Assembly: GCA_015134435.1 (NCBI GenBank)
Contig: CP043989.1
Coordinates: forward strand, 120,001 to 152,000
Origin: Candidatus Saccharimonadota bacterium
GTDB lineage: Bacteria; Pseudomonadota; Gammaproteobacteria; Enterobacterales; Enterobacteriaceae
Length of the DNA: 32,000 nt
Direction of reading: 5' to 3'
Shown: positions 3,691-18,169 of the stretch, piece by piece
Position numbering within the stretch: the first letter of the stretch is position 1
Layout: each line of letters opens with the position of its first letter
The notes under the pieces: generated by a model
The model's database searches: none
Told to the model about the DNA's origin: nothing
The model's input: the letters and a program-made list of their open reading frames with translations, nothing else
Made by a program: the position numbers and the translations under genes

Positions 3691-5403
3691 TTATATATTT
3701 TTTAAAATTGGTATTCCTAGAATATATAATGATATTTTAATTATTTTTCCTATTATTGATATTAATTTTAATTTACTTTTTTTTTTTTTAATATTTTTTA
3801 AATTATAAATATTTTCTAATTCATAAAATTTTGAAAAATATATTGTTAAATTATATAAATATTTACATATTTCATGTGTAGTTCCATTTTTATATGATTT
3901 TTTTATTATTTCTTCAAAATTTAATATTTTTTTAGATATTATTAATTCTATTTTATTAGATATATAAAAATTATTATTTAATATACATTTAGTTATATTA
4001 GTATTATTTTTTTTTAGTAAAGATAATATTCTTGTATATGCATATTGTATATATGGTCCAGTATTATTTTTTAATAAAATTATTTTTTTAAAATTAAATA
4101 TATAATTTTTTGTTCTTTTTTTAGATAAATCCATATATTTTATAGCTCCAATTGCTATTTTTTTTGATATTCTATATATTTTTTGTTTATTATATATATA
4201 TTTATATTTTTTAAAATATTTTTTTTTTATATATTTTATAGTTTTTTTAATTATTTTTTTTAATTTTATATTTTTTCCTTTTCTTGTTTTAAATGGTTTT
4301 TTATTTTTATTTAATATATTTCCAAAATAATAATGTATTAATTTTATTTTTTTTGGTATATATTTAGCTTTTTTTGTTATTAAAAATATATTTTTCATAT
4401 ATTCTTTTTGTCTTATATCTGTTAAATATATAATTTTATTTATTTTATATTTTTTATATCTATATTTTATACATGCTATATCTATAGTACTATATAAATA
4501 AGCACCATCTTTTTTTTGAATTATAATATTAAAATTATTTTTTTTATTTTTAATTAAAATTGTTTTTTTATCTTTTATAGCTATATTTTTTTTTATTAAA
4601 TCTTTTACTATATATTTTAATTTATTTTTATAATAACTTTCTCCAAATATATTTTTTTTAGATAATTTTATATTTAATTTTTTATATATTTTTTCATTTT
4701 CTAATATATTTATATTTATAATTTTTTTTCATATATAAATATTATTTTTATTATTATTTTGTAATTTTAATGTATTTTTTCTACATTTTTTAGCAAAATT
4801 TTTATTTTTTAAAAACATTAATTGTGATTTTTTATATATTTTTTCTAATTTTTTTATATTACATTTATTTATATTTATTTTATTTTTTTTTATTCATGTT
4901 ATTATTATTCCAAATTGATTACCTCAATCTCCTATATGATTCATTTTTATTATTTTATCTCCTAATAAATAAGATATATTTGATATACAATCTCCTAAAA
5001 TTGTTGATCTTAAATGACCTATATGCATTTCTTTAGATATATTTGGTGATGAATAATCTATTATTATTTTATTTTTTTTTTTATTTTTTATTCCAAAATT
5101 TTTTATTTTAGATTTTTTATTTATTATTTTTTCAATTTCTTTTTTTTTTATATATATATTTATTATTCCTGGTTTTATAGTATTTATTTTTTTAAATATT
5201 TTATATTTTTTTAAATTTTTTATTAAATTAAAAATTATTTTTTTTTTGTTTATATTTTCTTTATTTGATATATTTATAATTCCATAAATTTGATAATCAC
5301 TAAATTTATAATTATTTTTTATATTATATTTATATTTTTTTTTAATATTATATTTTTTTAAAATTTTTTTAATTTCTTTTTTTATTATATTTTTAATATT
5401 CAT
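3691..5403 (-). CDS. argS: Arginyl-tRNA synthetase
   Basis: ORF pieces 4924..5403 and 3691..4398 are in the same frame and are joined through TGA codons. The HIGH region is PNISKEMHIGHLRSTILGD. The C-terminal anticodon-binding region is typical of ArgRS. About 570 aa. Confidence 0.9.
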
Positions 5404-5515
5404 AATTTATATTATATTATTTATAATTTAATTTTAATTTATTTATTATTTTAATTTTATTAATATATAATAAAATATTATATTATTTTTTAATTATAAA
5501 TAATTGAGTTATATT

Positions 5516-7168
5516 ATGAATATTTATTGTAATGATTTAAAAATTAAAGATATTGATAAAGAGGTAAATTTATTTGGTTGAGTAAATAATATAAAATTAT
5601 TAAAAAATATAATTTTTATAGATTTTAGAGATATTAGTGGTTATATACAAATTTTATGTAAAAAAAATATTGTTCATTTATGAAATGATATTTTATTATT
5701 AAATAATGAATCTTGTATTGAAGTATTTGGTATAGTAAAAAAAAAAGATAAATTAAATATAGAAATATTAGCTTATTATATAAATGTATTAAATTATTCT
5801 ATTTCTTTACCTTTAGATATAAATAATATTAATAATTCTGAAAATATTAGATTAAAGTATCGTTATTTAGATTTAAGAAGAAGAGATATGTTAAATGTAG
5901 TTAAATTAAAATCTAATATTAAATTTTTTATTAATAATTTTTTTTTTAAAAGAAATTTTATAGAAATTGAAACTCCTTTTTTATCTAAATCTTTTTATGA
6001 GGGTGCTAATAGTTATAAAATTATTAGTAGAATATATAAAAATAAATTTTATTCTTTACCTCAATCTCCTCAAATATTTAAACAATTATTAATGATTTCT
6101 GGTATAAATAAATATTATCAAATTGTAAAATGTTTTAGAGATGAAGATTTACGTTCTGATCGTCAACCAGAATTTACTCAATTAGATATTGAAATGTCTT
6201 TTGTAGATTTTGATGTATTATTTAATTTAATAAATAATTTAATTTTTAAAATATTTTTAAGATTTAAAAATTATAAAATTATTAATTGTTTTAATAAATT
6301 AAATTATATTGATTCTATTAATAATTTTGGTACAGATAAACCTGATTTACGTAATTCTGTAAAATATAATTTTGATTTTTCTTTATTTTTATTTAAATAT
6401 TTTTTTAAAGAAAAGAAGATAGATAATATAAAAACTATTATAATTAATAATATTTTTAATATATCTAATATAAATTTAATTTTTAATTTTTTTAATAAAA
6501 AAAAAATTAAAAATTATTGTTGTATATATATATATAATAAAAAAAATAATATTTTTAAATATAAAATTTTTGGAAATTTAAATATTAATGATTATTATAT
6601 TGATAAAATATTTTCTTATCTAAATTTATCTATAAATACTTTTATTTCTATAATTTTATTAGATGATAATATAGATAAAAAAATATTAGTTAATATTAGA
6701 GATTATTATTGTAAAATTTTTAATTTATTTAAAAATGGTTTTTATCCTATATGGATAATTAATTTTCCTATGTTTTTTTATAATAAAAATAATGATATTA
6801 GTGCTTATCATCATCCATTTACTATGCCTTTAAATATAAATTTAAATAAATTAAAATCTATTAATAATTATAATTTATTATTAGCTAATTCTTATGATTT
6901 GGTAATTAATGGTTATGAATTATGTAGTGGTTCTCAAAGAATACATAAATATTATATTCAAAAAGAAATATTTAAAATATTAAATATAGGTAATAAATAT
7001 AATTTTTTTTTAAATTCATTAAAATATGGAGCTCCTCCTCATTTAGGTATAGCTTTGGGTTTAGATAGATTAATTATGTTAATAAGTGGTTTTAAAAGTA
7101 TAAAAGATGTTATTGCATTTCCTAAAACTACTTCTGGATTATGTTTATTAACTAATTCTCCAGATTAA
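5516..7168 (+). CDS. aspS: Aspartyl-tRNA synthetase
   Basis: The ATG at 5516 is in frame with ORF 5888..7168. TGA at 5579-5581 sits at the conserved Trp (LFGW-VNN versus E. coli LCGWVNR). Motifs: LKYRYLDLRR, LPQSPQIFKQLLM, YYQIVKCFRDEDLRSDRQPEFTQLDIE, HHPFT, GLDRLIML, AFPKT. Confidence 0.95.
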
Positions 7169-7323
7169 TTTTTTTAATATTTATATTAAATTTTTAAATA
7201 AAAATTATATTTTTATAAAATTATAATAACATTATAATATAATTATATTTATAAAATTATTTAATTTTTTTTTTATTTATGTTAATATTTATTATATTGT
7301 ATTTTATTTAAAAGGTAATATTA

Positions 7324-7588: not shown

Positions 7589-7652
7589 ATACTAAATTTG
7601 AATTATTTAAATATATGATTATATAATTAAATAATTCATTTAGTATTTTTTT
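7589..7652. terminator. Bidirectional intrinsic terminator hairpin between convergent cspE and the protelomerase gene
   Basis: Arm 7589-7610 (atactaaatttgaattatttaa) pairs with 7627-7646 (ttaaataattcatttagtat). That gives about 20 bp with a 2-nt bulge and a 16-nt loop. It is followed by a T-run on the plus strand and preceded by an A-run (a T-run on the minus strand). Confidence 0.6.
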
Positions 7653-7663
7653 ATAAATTTTTA

Positions 7664-9208
7664 TTATTTTATTATTTTTTTTTTAATTATTTTATATCTT
7701 CCTTTTATTTTTTTTTGATTTATATATTTTGATATATATTTTATATATCTTTGTATTAATATTGTATTAAATCCAAATTTTCTTAATAAATAATTATTTA
7801 TTAATTTTTCATCATTTTTTAAAAGTATTTTTTTTGTTAATTTATGTATTTTATATGCATCTTTTCTTTTTATTATTTTATGTATTTTTTTGTCTAATTT
7901 TATTAATTTTTTATATCTTTTATTTTTTATATTTTTTGGTTTTCATTTTTTATTAAAATTAATTAATTTAAATTGTTTATAATGTATATGACTATTTATA
8001 TTTTTATGTCCTAATATTTTATAAAAAAACATATCTTCATCGTATTTTTTTCATTTTTTATCTTTTTTAAATCATTTTTGAAAACATATACGTATATATA
8101 TTGATCTTGTATCTTTATATGTTCTTTTATTGTTTTGAAAAAAATTTTTTGCTGTTTTGTTAAATTTATTAGAAAAATAATTACTTATTTGATAATTTTT
8201 TGATAAATATTTATTTTTTTTTTTTTTTATATTATTTATAATATTTTTTAATATTTTATTATTTCTTAATTTTTTTATTTTTTTTATAAATAATTTTGAA
8301 TTATATAATAAATATATATTATATTTTTTTTTTTTATTATTTTTTGCTTGACCTTTAAATTGTATTTTATTTTTTTTATATATATATTTAAATTTTCCTA
8401 ATTTAATTATTTCTATCATTCTTCTTCCAGATACTGCTGATAATGCAAATGATAAATAAGATATATTTTTTATGTTATTTAGATTTATATTTTTATTTAA
8501 TATATTATATATTTCTTGTAAATAATTTTTATAATTTATTGTTATTGAATTAATTTTTTTTATTTTTAATTTATTATATGAATTTTGTTTTGAAATTAAA
8601 AATTTTCTTTTTTCTACTTTTAAATGAAATAATATTTCATGATTTATTTTTATATTTTTTATTTTTTTTTTAATTATTTCTCCTTGTTGTATTTTATTTA
8701 TAATATATTTATTTGATGAATATCATTTTTGATTTATCATATTTGTAAGTTCTTTTTTTCATTCTGGAAAAATTTTTATTGATTTTTTTATTATTTTTAT
8801 ATTATTTTTTGTGGAATTTATTTTAATTTTATTTATATTTTTTATTAAATTATTGATTAATTCTAATTTTTTATATATTTTTTTGAATTCTTTGTATATT
8901 ATTTTTGTATTTTTTATTTTACTTATATAATTCATTTCTTTTTTAAAATAATTAAAATTTTTTTTTATATATTTTATTTTTCTATTTAAACTATAATGTT
9001 TTATATTTATAAATTGTTTTCTTGCTCTAGATATATAATTTATATATGTATTTATAGAAATATTTTTTTTTTTTAATTTTTTTTTAAATTTTTGAGATTC
9101 TTTTTTATAAAGAATATTTTTTTTTTTTTGTAAAATATTTTTTTTATTTTCTATTATATTTATTTTTTTAACTAATTTTTTTATTAATATATTTATATTT
9201 TTTTTCAT
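7664..9208 (-). CDS. tel: Protelomerase / hairpin-telomere resolvase, TelN/TelK family (514 aa)
   Basis: One reverse frame runs from 9208 to 7664. It has five in-frame TGA codons (low coordinates 8759, 8723, 8072, 8051, 7943) and a TAA stop at 7664-7666. It joins ORF-track pieces 8759..9208 and 8072..8419 plus two unlisted pieces. Motifs matching my recollection of N15 TelN: NTYINYISRARKQF, NHEILFHL, LSFALSAVSGRRMIEI, FKGQAK, YKDTRSIYIRI, YDEDMFFYKILGH, HIHYKQFKLINF. The candidate nucleophile is Tyr410 (codon 7979-7981). Four of the five TGA codons align with TelN Trp residues. Confidence 0.88.
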
Positions 9209-9226
9209 AATTATTAAATATTTGTT

Positions 9227-9300
9227 TATATTTTATATTGTAACATATATAATAAATATACATATGTATATTTATTATATATGTTACAATATAAAATATA
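9227..9300. repeat. Perfect 74-bp palindrome P1, candidate protelomerase target site
   Basis: Verified base by base. Arm 9227-9263 is the exact reverse complement of 9264-9300, with the dyad centre in CATATG (9261-9266). It begins 19 bp upstream of the tel start codon. The core 9229-9298 is repeated identically at 9335-9404. Confidence 0.95.
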
Positions 9301-9440
9301 TTAATAATTTATATTTTTATAATTATTAAATAATTATTTTATATTGTAACATATATAATAAATATACATATGTATATTTATTATATATGTTACAATATAA
9401 AATAATTATTTAATAATTATAAAAATATAAATTATTAATA
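9299..9440. repeat. Perfect 142-bp palindrome P2, the second copy of the 70-bp core plus 36-bp inverted flanks
   Basis: Verified base by base. Arm 9299-9369 is the exact reverse complement of 9370-9440, with the dyad centre in CATATG (9367-9372). It shares 2 bp with the end of P1. The two dyad centres are 106 bp apart. Confidence 0.95.
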
Positions 9441-9600
9441 AAAATTAATTATAAATAATTATAACAAAAATAAAAATATTTATAAAAAAATAAAAAAATT
9501 TAAAAATATAAATTATATTATAAAATTATTATAATTTAAAATAAAAAAAAATAAATGTATAATAATTTAAATTATTTTAAAAAAAATTTTATAAATAAAT

Positions 9601-9666
9601 AAAATAAAAAATACTAATGAATTATTTAATTAAAATTTACAAAAAATTAAATAATTCAAAATAGTA
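9601..9666 (-). terminator. Intrinsic terminator hairpin downstream of gapA-like gene
   Basis: 9618-9631 (tgaattatttaatt) pairs perfectly with 9646-9659, and 9612-9616 (tacta) pairs with 9662-9666. On the minus strand the hairpin is followed by ttttttatttt. The arm sequence is nearly identical to the hairpin at 7589-7646. Confidence 0.6.
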
Positions 9667-9675
9667 AAAAATAAA

Positions 9676-10677
9676 TTAATTATAATAATATATATAAGAT
9701 GCTAAATCTAAAACTTTTTCAGAATAAGCAATTTCATTATTATATCATACAACTAATTTAACAAAATTATTATTTAATAATAAAGTAGATTTTGCATCAA
9801 AAATAGAAATCAATTTTTCATTATTAAAATCACTTGAAACAACATCATCATATGTAATACCTAAAATATCACGTAAATAACTATTAGAAGCTTCATAAAT
9901 ACAAGAACATATTTTATCATATGTAACATTAGAATTTAATTTAATATTTAAATCAATTAATGATGCATTAGAAACAGGAACTTTAAAAACTATACCTTTA
10001 ATTTTTTCTTTTAAATCAGGAATTATATAATTTATATTATTAATACTATTAGTAAAAGAGGGAATAATATTATTAAAAATACTTCTATTATTACGTCAAT
10101 TTTTAACAGAAAAATTATTAACTATTTTTTGATTAGAAATAAAAGAACGTATAATAGTTATAAAAGATTCTATAATACCAAAATTATCATTTATAACTTT
10201 AAGTATAGTAGCTAAACAATTAGTAGTAGAAGAAGTACTAGATACAATATTCTGTCCATTATAATTATAATGATTAATACCCATAACAAACATAGGAATA
10301 TCATCTTTAGAAGAATTAGTAATAACTACATATTTAGCTCCAGATAAAATATGCCCATAAGATAAATCTTTAGTTATAAAAACACCAGTAGATTCAATTA
10401 CTATATCAACATTAAATTTATTTCATGGAATATTTTTAGGTTTATCAAAAGAAGTAATATAAATCTTATTATTATCAATTAATAAATAATCATTTTTAAA
10501 ATCAATTTTACTATTAAATTTTCCATAAATTGAATCATATTTTAACATATAAGCTATATAATTAATTTTTAATAAATCATTAATAGCAACTATTTTAATA
10601 TTTTTTCTATACTGTGAATTACGAAATATTAATCTTCCAATCCTACCGAAACCATTTATACCTATTCTAATAGTCAT
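9676..10677 (-). CDS. gapA: Glyceraldehyde-3-phosphate dehydrogenase homologue with substituted catalytic Cys and His
   Basis: 333 aa, collinear with E. coli GapA without gaps. Matches include [49 protein letters not shown]. There are three in-frame TGA codons at conserved Trp positions. A strong GAGG Shine-Dalgarno sequence lies upstream. The active-site motif reads [10 protein letters not shown] where GapA has SNASCTTNCL. Confidence 0.85.
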
Positions 10678-15194: not shown

Positions 15195-15374
15195 TTATAG
15201 ATTATTTAATTTTTTTTTATTAATTTTAATAAATACTTCTTTTCTATAAATAGAAATATCTTTAGGAGCATCAATACCTATACGAATTTGATTATTTTTA
15301 ATTCCTAATATTATTATATTAATATTATTCCCTATAATTAATGTTTCACCAATTTTTCGAGTTAAAATAAGCAC
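15195..15374 (-). CDS. csrA: Carbon storage regulator CsrA (RNA-binding)
   Basis: 59 aa from a GTG start. Sequence: (M)LILTRKIGETLIIGNNINIIILGIKNNQIRIGIDAPKDISIYRKEVF. E. coli has [48 protein letters not shown]. It is not in the ORF track. The GTG overlaps the alaS TAG stop by 1 nt. Confidence 0.88.
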   Translation of the reverse strand: MLILTRKIGETLIIGNNINIIILGIKNNQIRIGIDAPKDISIYRKEVFIKINKKKLNNL

Positions 15375-18064
15375 TATAAATCCTTATTATTTAATAATAA
15401 AATTTTATTAAAATTTAATAATTTAAATTTAACAAAATTTATTATATTTTTTAAAATATTTTTTTTTTTAAAAGATAATATATTAAAAAATTCAATATAA
15501 AAATTTTTTTTATTTATAATTTTATCTTTTTTTATATTAATAAAATTATTATTTAATATATTTAAATTAAAATTATATAAAATATTTTTATTTAAATATA
15601 ATATTAATTTATAAATATTATTTAATTTTAAAATAAATATTATTAATGATAAATTAAATTTAAATTTTAATTTATTAATAATTAAATATAATAAATTTTC
15701 TTCTAAAAAATCATTATATAAAAATTTTTTTATCAAAATATTTAAATTAAAATATTTAATAATATCACTAAATAAAATTTGAGATAAAATATTTTTAATT
15801 AATATATTATAAATTAAATTAATTTTTTTTTTAATTTTAATTTTTTTATTTTTTATAGAAATAAATCTATTTAATATATTTTTTTTATCAATAAATAAAA
15901 AATTACATATATTATTTAAAATATATATATTTTTATTTATATATTTTAAAGCATATAAATTAGTACATGCTTTAATTCTTTTAATATTAGAAGAAATATT
16001 ATATTTTTTTTTTATTATAAATAAATTTATATAATTAGTATTATTAACATGAGTACCACAACAATAATCTTTTATTAAATTATTAAAATAAACTTCACGA
16101 ATATAATTTTTAAAAAAAAAATTAAATTTTTTATTAATAACATTATTTTTTATAATATTTTCTTTAAAAATTAATTTTTTTAATATTATTTCATTAACTT
16201 TTTTATTAATAATATATATATCAAAATTATTTAATTTAAAATCATAAAAAAAATCTAAAGTAAAATAATTATTTTTAATTAAAGAACCACATTGATTTAT
16301 ATTATTAGAAAAAAATTTTTTTAAAACATATAATAATATATGAGTAGAAGAATGATTACAAGATATATTAAATCTATAATTATAATCATATTCAACTTTA
16401 ACAAAATCATTAATTTTAATAAAACCATATTCTAATTTACCAATATGAATAATATATTTATTAAAAATTTTTGTATTATAAACAAAAAATTTAAAATTAT
16501 TATTATATATCACTCCTCTATCACCTATTTGACCACCACATTCAGGATAAAAAACAGTACTAGATAATATAATAATTAATTCTATATTACATTCTTTAAA
16601 ATAATTAATTTGTATATTATTTAATAATATACAAATTATTTTACTATAACAATATTTTTTATTATAACCTAAAAATTTTGTTTTTTTTAAATTACTTAAA
16701 TTATAAAAATTTAAATTACTTTTAAATTTATTAATAACTTTAGATTTTTTTTTTTGTAAATTTAATAAATATTTAAATTTTTTTAAATCAAGAATAATAT
16801 TATTATATTTACATACTTCATTTATTATATTTAATGGTAAACCATGAGTATCATATAATAAAAAAATAATATTACCATCTAAAATATTATTTTTAATAAT
16901 ATTTTTTTTTAAATAAAAATATAAAATATCTAAACTTTTATATAAATTATAAAAATATTTTTTTTCTTCTTCTAAAACTATATTTTTTATTTTTATAAAA
17001 ATTTTTTTATTATCTAAAATATAAAAATTAAAAAATCAATCTTTAAGAAAATATAATAAATTATTTAAAATAAAATTTTTATTTTTTAATAATATATATA
17101 AATATGTTAATGTTCTTCTTATTAATTTACGTAATATATAACCTCTATATTCATTAGAAGGTGTTATATTATCTATTATTAAATATATAATTGATCTTAT
17201 ATGATCAGAAATTAAATTAAAAATAAAAATATTTTTATTATTTAAATTTAAATTTAAAAATAAAGAAATATTTTTTTTTAAATTAATAAAAATATCAATA
17301 TCAAAATTAGAAATAACATTTTGTAAAACAGATGATATTCTTTCTAACCCCATACCTGTATCTATAGATTTATAAGGTAAATATTCAATTTTATTATTAT
17401 TAATAATATTATATTCTATAAAAACTAAATTTCATATTTCTAAATATTTATTACTATCTTTATATAATAAAAAATTATCAATATTTTTAATACAATTAAT
17501 ATTGTAATATATTTCCGTACTATAACCACAAGGACCTAATTTTGACATTTGTCAAAAATTATCTGATTTTAAATTTATTTTATTAGATTTAATTCCAATC
17601 AAAAAAATATTTTTTTTAGAAATACCTATAATATTTAATCAAATATTATAAGTTTCATAATCATTTATATCTACAGTTATAATTAACTTATTTTTTTCTA
17701 AACCAAATCATTTTTTAGAAGTTAATAATTCTCAAATATATAAAATACAATCTTTTTTAAAATAAGAATCAAAACTAAAATTACCCATCATTTCAAAAAA
17801 TGTATTATGTCTATAAGTATATCCTATATTATCTAAATCATTATGTTTTCCACCAACTCTTAAGCAACGTTGTACAGTAACTATTTCTTTATAAAAACTA
17901 TTTTTAAAACCTAAAAATATATCTTTAAATTGATTCATACCTGCATTAGTAAATAATAAACTATCATCATCAGGTACTAAAGAACTACTTTCAATAAAAA
18001 AATGATTTTTAGATTTAAAAAAATCTATAAATAAATTACGTATTTCATTAAAACTTTTAAACAT
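15374..18064 (-). CDS. alaS: Alanyl-tRNA synthetase
   Basis: Three ORF pieces (17732..18064, 17036..17353, 15374..16513) share one frame and are joined through TGA codons. Motifs: [51 protein letters not shown], and editing-domain HSSTHIL and CCGTHV. It ends in TAG. Confidence 0.93.
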
Positions 18065-18169
18065 AATTAAACTTATAAAAAAATAAAATTATAATAATTA
18101 TTATAATATTAAAATAATTTATAAATTAATAAAATAAAAAAATACTAATAAAATTATATAAAATAAAAA

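Follow-up and report, generated by a model that had tools for sequence, protein, structure and literature searches.

Linear replicons with hairpin telomeres are known from telomere phages, Borrelia and Agrobacterium. The phages N15 and phiKO2 (46–52-kb prophages) encode the protelomerases TelN and TelK, which share an architecture of N-terminal, muzzle, catalytic and stirrup domains and act on a target palindrome, telRL, upstream of tel on the same replicon. In Agrobacterium tumefaciens and Borrelia, the resident resolvases TelA and ResT keep a cellular chromosome linear by way of replicated inverted-repeat junctions, and the two chromosome ends have short terminal inverted repeats in common. 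By the established protelomerase mechanism, replication of a hairpin-ended molecule with ends L and R regenerates only the junctions L–L′ and R′–R. Every protelomerase studied cuts its two strands 6 bp apart, and in TelK the sequence between the scissile positions is CGCGCG (PMC3558466). Here we analyse a 32-kb window (the whole stretch of DNA to which our coordinates refer) of CP043989.1, a Stammera genome of 212.7 kb (PMC11842425). The window, assigned to Candidatus Stammera capleta, contains a protelomerase gene, tel, beside two large perfect palindromes. Together with 33 sister chromosomes, this locus makes it likely that the Stammera chromosome is linear with covalently closed hairpin ends and that the palindromes are its two ends, abutted in the record. 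Stammera is a pectin-digesting symbiont of tortoise and hispine leaf beetles, and its chromosome, at 0.21–0.33 Mb, is among the most reduced bacterial genomes.

The window has a GC content of ~12%. We read it with genetic code 4 (TGA as Trp, for example in 7664–9208 and 15374–18088) because only under this code do the open reading frames (ORFs) merge into housekeeping genes of normal length, raising the summed coding length from 7605 aa under table 11 to 11474 aa. A table 11 ORF listing was rejected, as it splits most genes, including tel, of which a 149-aa ORF remains. Code 4 was likewise used for annotation in a Stammera preprint (10.1101/2023.12.12.571295). An initial annotation, made from the sequence alone, had named the gene beside the palindromes a protelomerase, an identity that is borne out, but only when the gene is read with code 4.

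We compared the code-4 product, Tel, with the Pfam set for the TelK/TelN-type family (PF16684 with PF20849, PF20818 and PF22853). Tel matches PF16684 (ResT-TelK_cat) over profile positions 1–181 of 181 with 77.8 bits (cut-off 27; E = 1e-21). The accessory domains TelK_muzzle (37.5 bits) and TelK_stirrup (30.2 bits) both exceed a cut-off of 27, and the TelK_N match is weak (21.2 bits, under the cut-off of 28). Against the TelK structure 2V6E, the alignment is contiguous over residues 26–498 (E = 7.8e-83), and the Tel motifs GRR, GQAK, KDxR, GH and HYKQF fall on the TelK active site. Tel residues R263, K289, R368, H401 and Y410 align with R295, K320, R403, H436 and Y445 of the 2V6E chain, which we take to be the published TelK active-site residues, assuming a numbering offset of 20 residues. 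These catalytic residues are invariant or at least 90% conserved among 15 Stammera orthologues. The gene at 7664–9208(−) agrees with the TelK/TelN-type protelomerases at every sequence-level point that could be checked, and we assign it to that family.

Tel differs from TelK and TelN in that identity is only ~36–37% and the protein is shorter, 514 aa as opposed to 640, with ~125 aa fewer at the C terminus. TelA, in contrast, lacks the muzzle and stirrup domains (PMC3558466) that Stammera Tel and TelK have in common. The target sequences of TelA and ResT are also different from the one described below. To our knowledge, ResT too is without muzzle and stirrup domains.

The gene is conserved throughout the clade. 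A protein search returned 15 close Tel homologues (51–100% identity) on single contigs of 212–314 kb, and tel orthologues are present in 33 of the 33 Stammera chromosomes retrieved. The 33 loci that a genome scan returned are all from Stammera. Against three strains, the amino-acid identity of Tel is 79, 78 and 62%, compared with 77, 80 and 52% for aspS and 84, 83 and 61% for argS, and the ratio of non-synonymous to synonymous substitution rates (dN/dS) of tel, 0.33–0.40, is similar to those of aspS, argS and gapA. By these measures, tel is constrained like its essential neighbours and evolves under purifying selection.

Upstream of tel, 9227–9300 (P1) is a perfect palindrome of 74 bp with an arm of 37, and 9299–9440 (P2) is a perfect palindrome of 142 bp with an arm of 71. 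A 70-bp core at 9229–9298 is repeated exactly at 9335–9404. The dyads, at 9263/9264 and 9369/9370, both lie in CATATG and are 106 bp apart, and the edge of P1 is 19 bp from the tel ATG (9208, minus strand). All of these sequence statements, the distance to tel among them, had been made in the initial annotation and were reproduced here. Its view that such palindromes are not expected by chance is also borne out: the runner-up perfect palindrome in the window has an arm of 14 nt, and in 30 simulated sequences of the same first-order composition the longest arm averaged 10.9 nt and was never greater than 15, so that P1 and P2 lie beyond chance even at 12% GC.

The two palindromes are laid out as C–S–C–S′, in which C is the core, S is a 36-nt flank and S′ is its reverse complement. 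The interval 9264–9369 is tiled exactly by both palindromes, and every base in it is derivable from the outer arms, a point that had previously been missed. This layout is what end-to-end concatenation produces when a contig ending in flankL–C is abutted to a contig start of the form S–C–S′–flankR. A flank, the core and the reverse complement of that flank on both arms is the pattern expected from read-through of a hairpin tip, or of a replicated telomere junction; a circle would give flankL–core–flankR. We conclude that the tandem pair almost certainly does not exist as DNA in the cell and is an artefact of a linear sequence written as a circle. The L–R adjacency is best explained as an artificial join, with the ends of the window record presumably concatenated directly, and the DNA present in the cell would be telL and telR, or their replicated forms, not telRL.

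The sister records point in the same direction. The comparison set comprises 33 Stammera chromosomes (loci L001–L033), 24 of which are CP144xxx records; blastn matches of the window to these loci were filtered to at least 77% identity, as the unfiltered output was flooded by A+T-rich chance matches. A spacer of NNNNN stands near tel in 23 of the 24 CP144xxx records. In most it lies upstream of the tel match at no more than ~250 bp; L021, with the spacer downstream of tel, and L032, with the spacer ~400 bp upstream, are among the exceptions. Seven older records (CP024013, CP043975, CP043978, CP043980, CP043983, CP043985 and CP043987) start or end no more than ~850 bp from tel. Where the core is reached, each side of the spacer forms its own perfect palindrome, consisting of the common core and the flank of that arm folded back (82 + 100 bp in L009, 74 + 76 in L010, 64 + 110 in L012, 58 + 82 in L017 and 70 + 70 in L030). 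A real, uncut telRL junction is not what these records contain, because they show NNNNN or a contig end at this place and each side is a fold-back of itself.

Fold-backs of variable length stand on the tel side of the NNNNN in L009, L010, L012, L030, L031, L001 and L015, and the palindrome of L031 reaches 230 bp. The longest is in L021 (CP144799.1), in which 3760–7195 is a perfect palindrome of 3436 bp centred ~40 bp upstream of the tel ATG. It carries an inverted copy of part of tel and is followed by NNNNN, at the far end of the fold-back, and by a 150-bp direct repeat; on this structure, we identify it as a fold-back assembly through the telomere. Across records, fold-backs are between 58 and 3436 bp long and differ even among close relatives, but the half-site within the core does not change; their length is therefore a property of the assembly.

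The CP144xxx genomes were assembled from Illumina reads with MEGAHIT and curated manually, with oriC set from GC skew, in a preprint that makes no mention of telomeres or protelomerase (10.1101/2023.12.12.571295); the records are therefore permuted as if circular. P2 of the window has a counterpart of precisely the same length, 142 bp, in L016, at the corresponding position but with an unrelated flank. This length is one more than 141, which we take to be the default maximum k of MEGAHIT, and we infer that it represents the self-reverse-complementary (k + 1)-mer edge at which a k = 141 de Bruijn contig stops at a hairpin. What such a fold-back explains is limited to the doubling of the arms and their tandem layout; the half-site in the core, its conservation and the enzyme are biological.

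These observations also bear on the alternative, favoured in the initial annotation, that both palindromes are real and stand in tandem on one molecule, as a duplicated resolution site on a circular or pre-resolution chromosome at which Tel cuts either copy or both. The palindromes are indeed contiguous in the record, L016 has a similar contiguous pair (142 + 60 bp) and C–S–C–S′ cannot arise from merging two ends over a common overlap. From the last point it had been argued that no simple assembler join could leave the 36-bp inverted flanks of P2, an argument that holds only for an overlap join, as end-to-end concatenation yields the observed string. However, there is no unique base between the dyads, and the same spot is an NNNNN gap in 23 sister records and a record end in 7. 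Moreover, the closely related L010 has palindromes of 74 and 76 bp on the two sides of Ns in place of the contiguous pair of L016, so that these lengths reflect the assembly and not the genome. With 150-nt reads and k = 141, a real 70 + 36 + 70 arrangement should have assembled in the sister genomes. An L–R junction with two active sites would also not be heritable, because the first resolution destroys it and replication does not regenerate it. We consider a real tandem duplication distinctly unlikely. With 9264–9369 read as a fold-back copy, the suggested release of a 106-bp double-hairpin fragment loses its support, and the question of which dyad is used falls away, as each would be the tip of one chromosome end.

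The sequence of the site is consistent with a substrate of the adjacent enzyme. In dyad-centred alignments with telRL of phiKO2 and N15, taken from the phage records (which agree with the N15 telO core quoted in the initial annotation), TATAC at −7 to −3 and ACA.A at −21 to −17 are common to all three, a short half-site match. The central hexamer is CATATG in the window and CGCGCG in the phages, with the flanking TATA retained. In other Stammera strains the hexamer is TAATTA or TATATA, and the half-site is constant across strains. The perfect central palindrome of telRL is shorter, with 22 bp in N15 (in a 56-bp site) and 28 bp in phiKO2 (in a 50-bp site), compared with the Stammera core of 70 bp. 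As in the phages, a perfect palindrome adjoins tel on the same replicon. The arrangement had been described as the same as that of N15; the order of gene and site does resemble N15, but the spacing does not, with telRL 164–165 bp upstream of tel in N15 and phiKO2 and only 19 bp between palindrome edge and ATG in Stammera. We classify the window site as a diverged telRL-type site, with predicted cuts at TATA↓CATATG↓TATA. That the palindromes are targets of the adjacent protelomerase, as initially proposed, is supported by this TelK/TelN-type site, in which TATA is kept and the central CGCGCG is replaced by CATATG.

The short stretch of ~55 bp between tip and tel ATG, which had been raised as a difficulty for a promoter, is real, and it is equal or shorter in other strains. 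With so little space, a tel promoter has to fall within the telomere arm. The locus differs in this respect from the TelA and ResT systems: the resolvase gene of Stammera is separated from a chromosome tip by only ~55 bp, and some strains probably carry it within the terminal inverted repeat.

A promoter at this position raises the possibility that the palindromes are not telomeres but an operator or promoter, or a structure of a replication terminus or origin, beside a phage-derived tel remnant. Any tel promoter would overlap the palindrome, a conserved TGTTACAAT resembles, in our own reading, an extended −10 element, and GC skew switches at the palindromes. Against this, the half-site keeps the geometry of phage telRL, and a promoter scan of the sequence gave no enrichment (38 matches against 43.6 expected), although such a scan is uninformative at this composition. 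A terminator scan likewise found no terminator-like site and is uninformative at this GC content. A regulatory role would leave the assembly breaks, the arm-specific fold-backs and the terminal inverted repeats unexplained, and a promoter that overlaps the site is compatible with a telomere and does not compete with it. We therefore regard a purely regulatory or replicative structure as highly improbable.

Under the linear chromosome that we favour, P1 would be one end (reading aspS–csp–E–tel–55 bp–tip, in which E is a hairpin element described below) and P2 the other (tip–250 bp–E–gapA). The real termini would be 9263/9264 and 9369/9370. A short-read de Bruijn assembler would have read through the hairpin tip at each end, leaving 9264–9369 as fold-back copy, and the linear contig was then presumably treated as a circle, which abutted the two ends. 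In the cell, replication from an origin near the middle of the chromosome would run round each hairpin and convert the ends into the inverted-repeat junctions L–L′ and R′–R, each a perfect palindrome. By homology with TelK and TelN, a Tel dimer would bind each junction and cut both strands 6 bp apart through Tyr410, forming 3′-phosphotyrosine links, and would then reseal each half as a covalently closed hairpin. The predicted cut spacing is also that of TelA and ResT (PMC3558466). In function, the Stammera system would resemble these chromosomal ones; its enzyme is of the phage type.

The position of the locus fits this scheme. In records rotated to oriC, tel is found at 46–49% of the length, and the cumulative G−C curve of the window has its maximum in the 9001–9500 bin, which holds the palindromes, although the signal is noisy at 12% GC. 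Together, these positions place the ends at the replication terminus, opposite an internal origin. Assembly breaks with arm-specific fold-backs, terminal inverted repeats shared by the two arms and ends at the terminus are found together, as expected of a linear replicon.

The depositors treated these genomes as single chromosomes, with oriC placed by GC skew, and the chromosome could instead be circular, with a single, badly assembling site at which Tel is inactive or has another job, such as dimer resolution or self-regulation; the fold-backs would then be library or assembler artefacts. Palindromes are known to disturb library preparation and assembly, only one site is seen in L029, and the L007 record is closed and gap-free. 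However, a 70-bp palindrome is shorter than both k = 141 and the read length, so that a circle should assemble through it, yet nearly all assemblies are broken at this point, with each side folded back on its own arm. Hairpin ends are, by definition, what a TelK-type enzyme with intact catalysis makes of its own palindrome. The purifying selection on tel, comparable to that on tRNA synthetase genes, and the conservation of the site across the clade also argue against this alternative. Remnants of inverted repeats, and the presence of csp on both arms, are in keeping with a linear replicon. On balance, a circular chromosome seems unlikely.

Several observations nevertheless weigh against a linear chromosome, or against our account of the record. 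The window record joins the palindromes without Ns. The fold-back on the tel side is only 35–37 nt, compared with 71 nt on the other side, which our account leaves unexplained. The window is a 2020-era record; MEGAHIT is named for the sister study only, and k = 141 is carried over to the window from it. The tel ORF is interrupted by frameshifts or gaps in several records, which could reflect assembly errors or real decay. L029, as noted, has one site, and L007 (CP144787.1) has neither an N gap nor a telomere palindrome between aspS and tel (5242–6000), so that either the telomere was trimmed at closure or the strain differs; L007 is the sole CP144xxx record labelled complete. Finally, a circle with a long palindrome and a linear chromosome ending in long inverted repeats look the same in short reads.

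The features of the terminal region are given in Table 1. The gene order in the window is lysS, pth, prfA, prmC, argS, aspS, csp, tel, the palindromes, gapA, rnhA, dnaQ, asnS and onward.

Table 1 Genes, telomere arms and repeat elements around the putative chromosome ends in the window
Feature	Position	Strand	Basis and remarks
aspS, last housekeeping gene of the left arm before csp and tel	5516–7168	+	Code-4 translation and synteny across loci
csp, cspA-like cold-shock gene, 70 aa	7324–7536	+	GFGFI motif in translation; counted in the terminal module
Subtelomeric hairpin element E (GAATTATTTAA..TTAAATAATTC), copy 1	7600–7637		Lies 27 nt beyond the tel stop
tel, protelomerase (telomere resolvase), 514 aa under code 4	7664–9208	−	Pfam and 2V6E matches; 5′ end toward the chromosome tip
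Left (tel-side) telomere arm	9227–9263		P1 arm; taken as real terminal DNA; putative tip 9263/9264; holds the conserved half-site TTGTAACATATATAATAAATATACAT
Fold-back of left arm	9264–9298		Exact reverse complement of 9229–9263; probably not separate genomic DNA
Fold-back of right arm	9299–9369		Exact reverse complement of 9370–9440; putative artificial junction at ~9298/9299
Right (gapA-side) telomere arm	9370–9440		P2 arm; taken as real terminal DNA (35 nt of core + 36-nt flank S′); putative tip 9369/9370
Degenerate terminal inverted repeat remnant, gapA arm	9405–9470	+	Homologous to the tel-side subterminal region; dead tel start (ATG to ATA)
Hairpin element E, copy 2	9619–9657		Lies 19 nt beyond the gapA stop and ~250 nt inward of the right tip
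gapA, first housekeeping gene of the right arm	9676–10677	−	Code-4 translation and synteny across loci

The two arms of the window are related beyond the core. Read inward from the tips, they are identical over 34 nt and, after a 6-nt indel, have degenerate homology over ~55 nt, or ~100 nt in total. Beyond the core, the alignment contains TATTTAATAATTAT, AAAAATATAAAT, TATTAAT and AAAAATTA in that order, with small indels between them, and a repeat search gave a similar signal for this homology. Next to the core, homology to the 5′ end of tel stands out far better than any signal for the 3′ end of tel on the gapA arm (z of ~5 in the window and 3.8 in L003), which comes almost entirely from element E; we do not claim a tel 3′-end remnant there.

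Element E has only two matches in the 32-kb window, with none expected by chance, and pairs of E flank the tel and telomere module in many strains (L003, L004, L005, L008, L009, L019, L021 and L033). Its role may be to terminate transcription in both directions, to mark where an ancestral terminal inverted repeat ended on its inner side, or to let the chromosome ends be exchanged by recombination.

There are two gene orders across the window and the 33 loci: tel is linked with aspS in 13 loci as well as in the window, and with gapA in 19 loci and in an odd case, L008. In every case the 5′ end of tel points toward the tip, whichever arm it is on. The order differs between close relatives, and both orders are seen in gap-free contigs; the terminal tel segment therefore appears to have switched arms, or to have been lost from either arm, repeatedly. 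In six genomes (L011, L014, L019, L022, L025 and L031), csp is present on both arms in inverted orientation; elsewhere it is on either arm alone. The csp copies next to the gap in L011, L022 and L025 are 97–99% identical over 144–279 nt; this points to a terminal inverted repeat that the assembly collapsed and in which tel, too, may be present twice. Such a collapse is probably the cause of the gene order in these three genomes. As a general explanation of the two orders, a collapsed-repeat artefact was rejected for the window, L018 and L027, in which tel is contiguous with one arm in a gap-free contig. The simplest reading of these patterns would be an ancestral terminal inverted repeat, csp–E–tel–core, from which one copy of each gene was lost from either arm according to lineage. 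Alternatively, ends may have been exchanged by recombination at E.

The neighbourhood of tel also indicates its source. The closest Tel outside Stammera (P0016; 37% identical) lies in a sopA–sopB–tel–repA–cI–cro–Q cassette, the context in which the nearest non-Stammera homologues are found; the cassette is typical of N15-like elements, and this Tel comes from a phage-plasmid. In Stammera, by contrast, the neighbours are aspS, csp and gapA on a 213-kb main chromosome of an obligate symbiont. No repA, sopAB, immunity (repressor) or virion genes occur beside tel among the window neighbours examined, and because they are absent there the locus is not an N15-like prophage. Judged by sequence, Tel and its site are a domesticated protelomerase system of the N15/phiKO2 type. 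We think it likely, with somewhat less confidence than in the linearity of the chromosome itself, that the whole clade has a linear, hairpin-ended main chromosome, that an enterobacterial ancestor acquired the protelomerase from an N15/phiKO2-like phage-plasmid, and that the enzyme was kept for tens of millions of years as the other phage genes were lost and copies of the ancestral csp–E–tel–core repeat disappeared from one arm or the other.

If this is correct, an obligate insect symbiont with a tiny genome keeps its only chromosome linear by means of a domesticated phage protelomerase. It would be the fourth kind of bacterial replicon with hairpin telomeres, beside those of Borrelia, Agrobacterium and the telomere phages, and the smallest known linear bacterial chromosome. 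An enzyme of a mobile element would have become a core housekeeping function, essential for chromosome maintenance. We speculate that linearity offers a genome shorn of most recombination and repair a way to avoid chromosome dimers and catenanes. The site, made up entirely of A+T around CATATG, TAATTA or TATATA centres, would also provide natural variants with which to examine the hexamer requirement of TelK-type enzymes. The linear Stammera chromosome is apparently unreported: the literature that we searched gave no protelomerase, telomere or linear chromosome for Stammera, although a remark in the 2017 Cell or 2020 Current Biology genome papers is possible.

There are practical consequences for users of these genomes. 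Around 50 public Stammera records appear to have been written as permuted circles. They carry artificial joins, spacers of NNNNN and duplications by fold-back that reach 3.4 kb, and adapter is left at the true ends. Those who rely on these records for synteny, skew or gene content should be aware of such features.

Some records have further peculiarities at the telomeric ends. The Illumina adapter AGATCGGAAGAGCACACGTCTGAACTCCAGTCAC, or its reverse complement, stands directly against telomeric contig ends in L015 (CP144850.1; ~5795–5830) and L028 (CP043980.1; 1–39), which we count among the evidence for a linear replicon. In L002 (CP043985.1), the first ~800 nt of the contig, just outside tel, are G+C-rich and unlike Stammera sequence, probably because of a chimeric join with host or contaminant DNA. 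The telomere palindromes at 5696–5807 of L001 and ~5848–5907 of L029 have a non-complementary central TT (X–TT–reverse complement of X), which could be an unpaired loop with flip and flop forms at the hairpin tip, or an error. On the arm without tel, a 32-nt unit, TATTATTCAATTTGTTAAATTTTATTTTATAT, is repeated in tandem four or more times in L003 (CP144768.1; ~5730–5859) as far as the N gap, possibly as a subtelomeric repeat.

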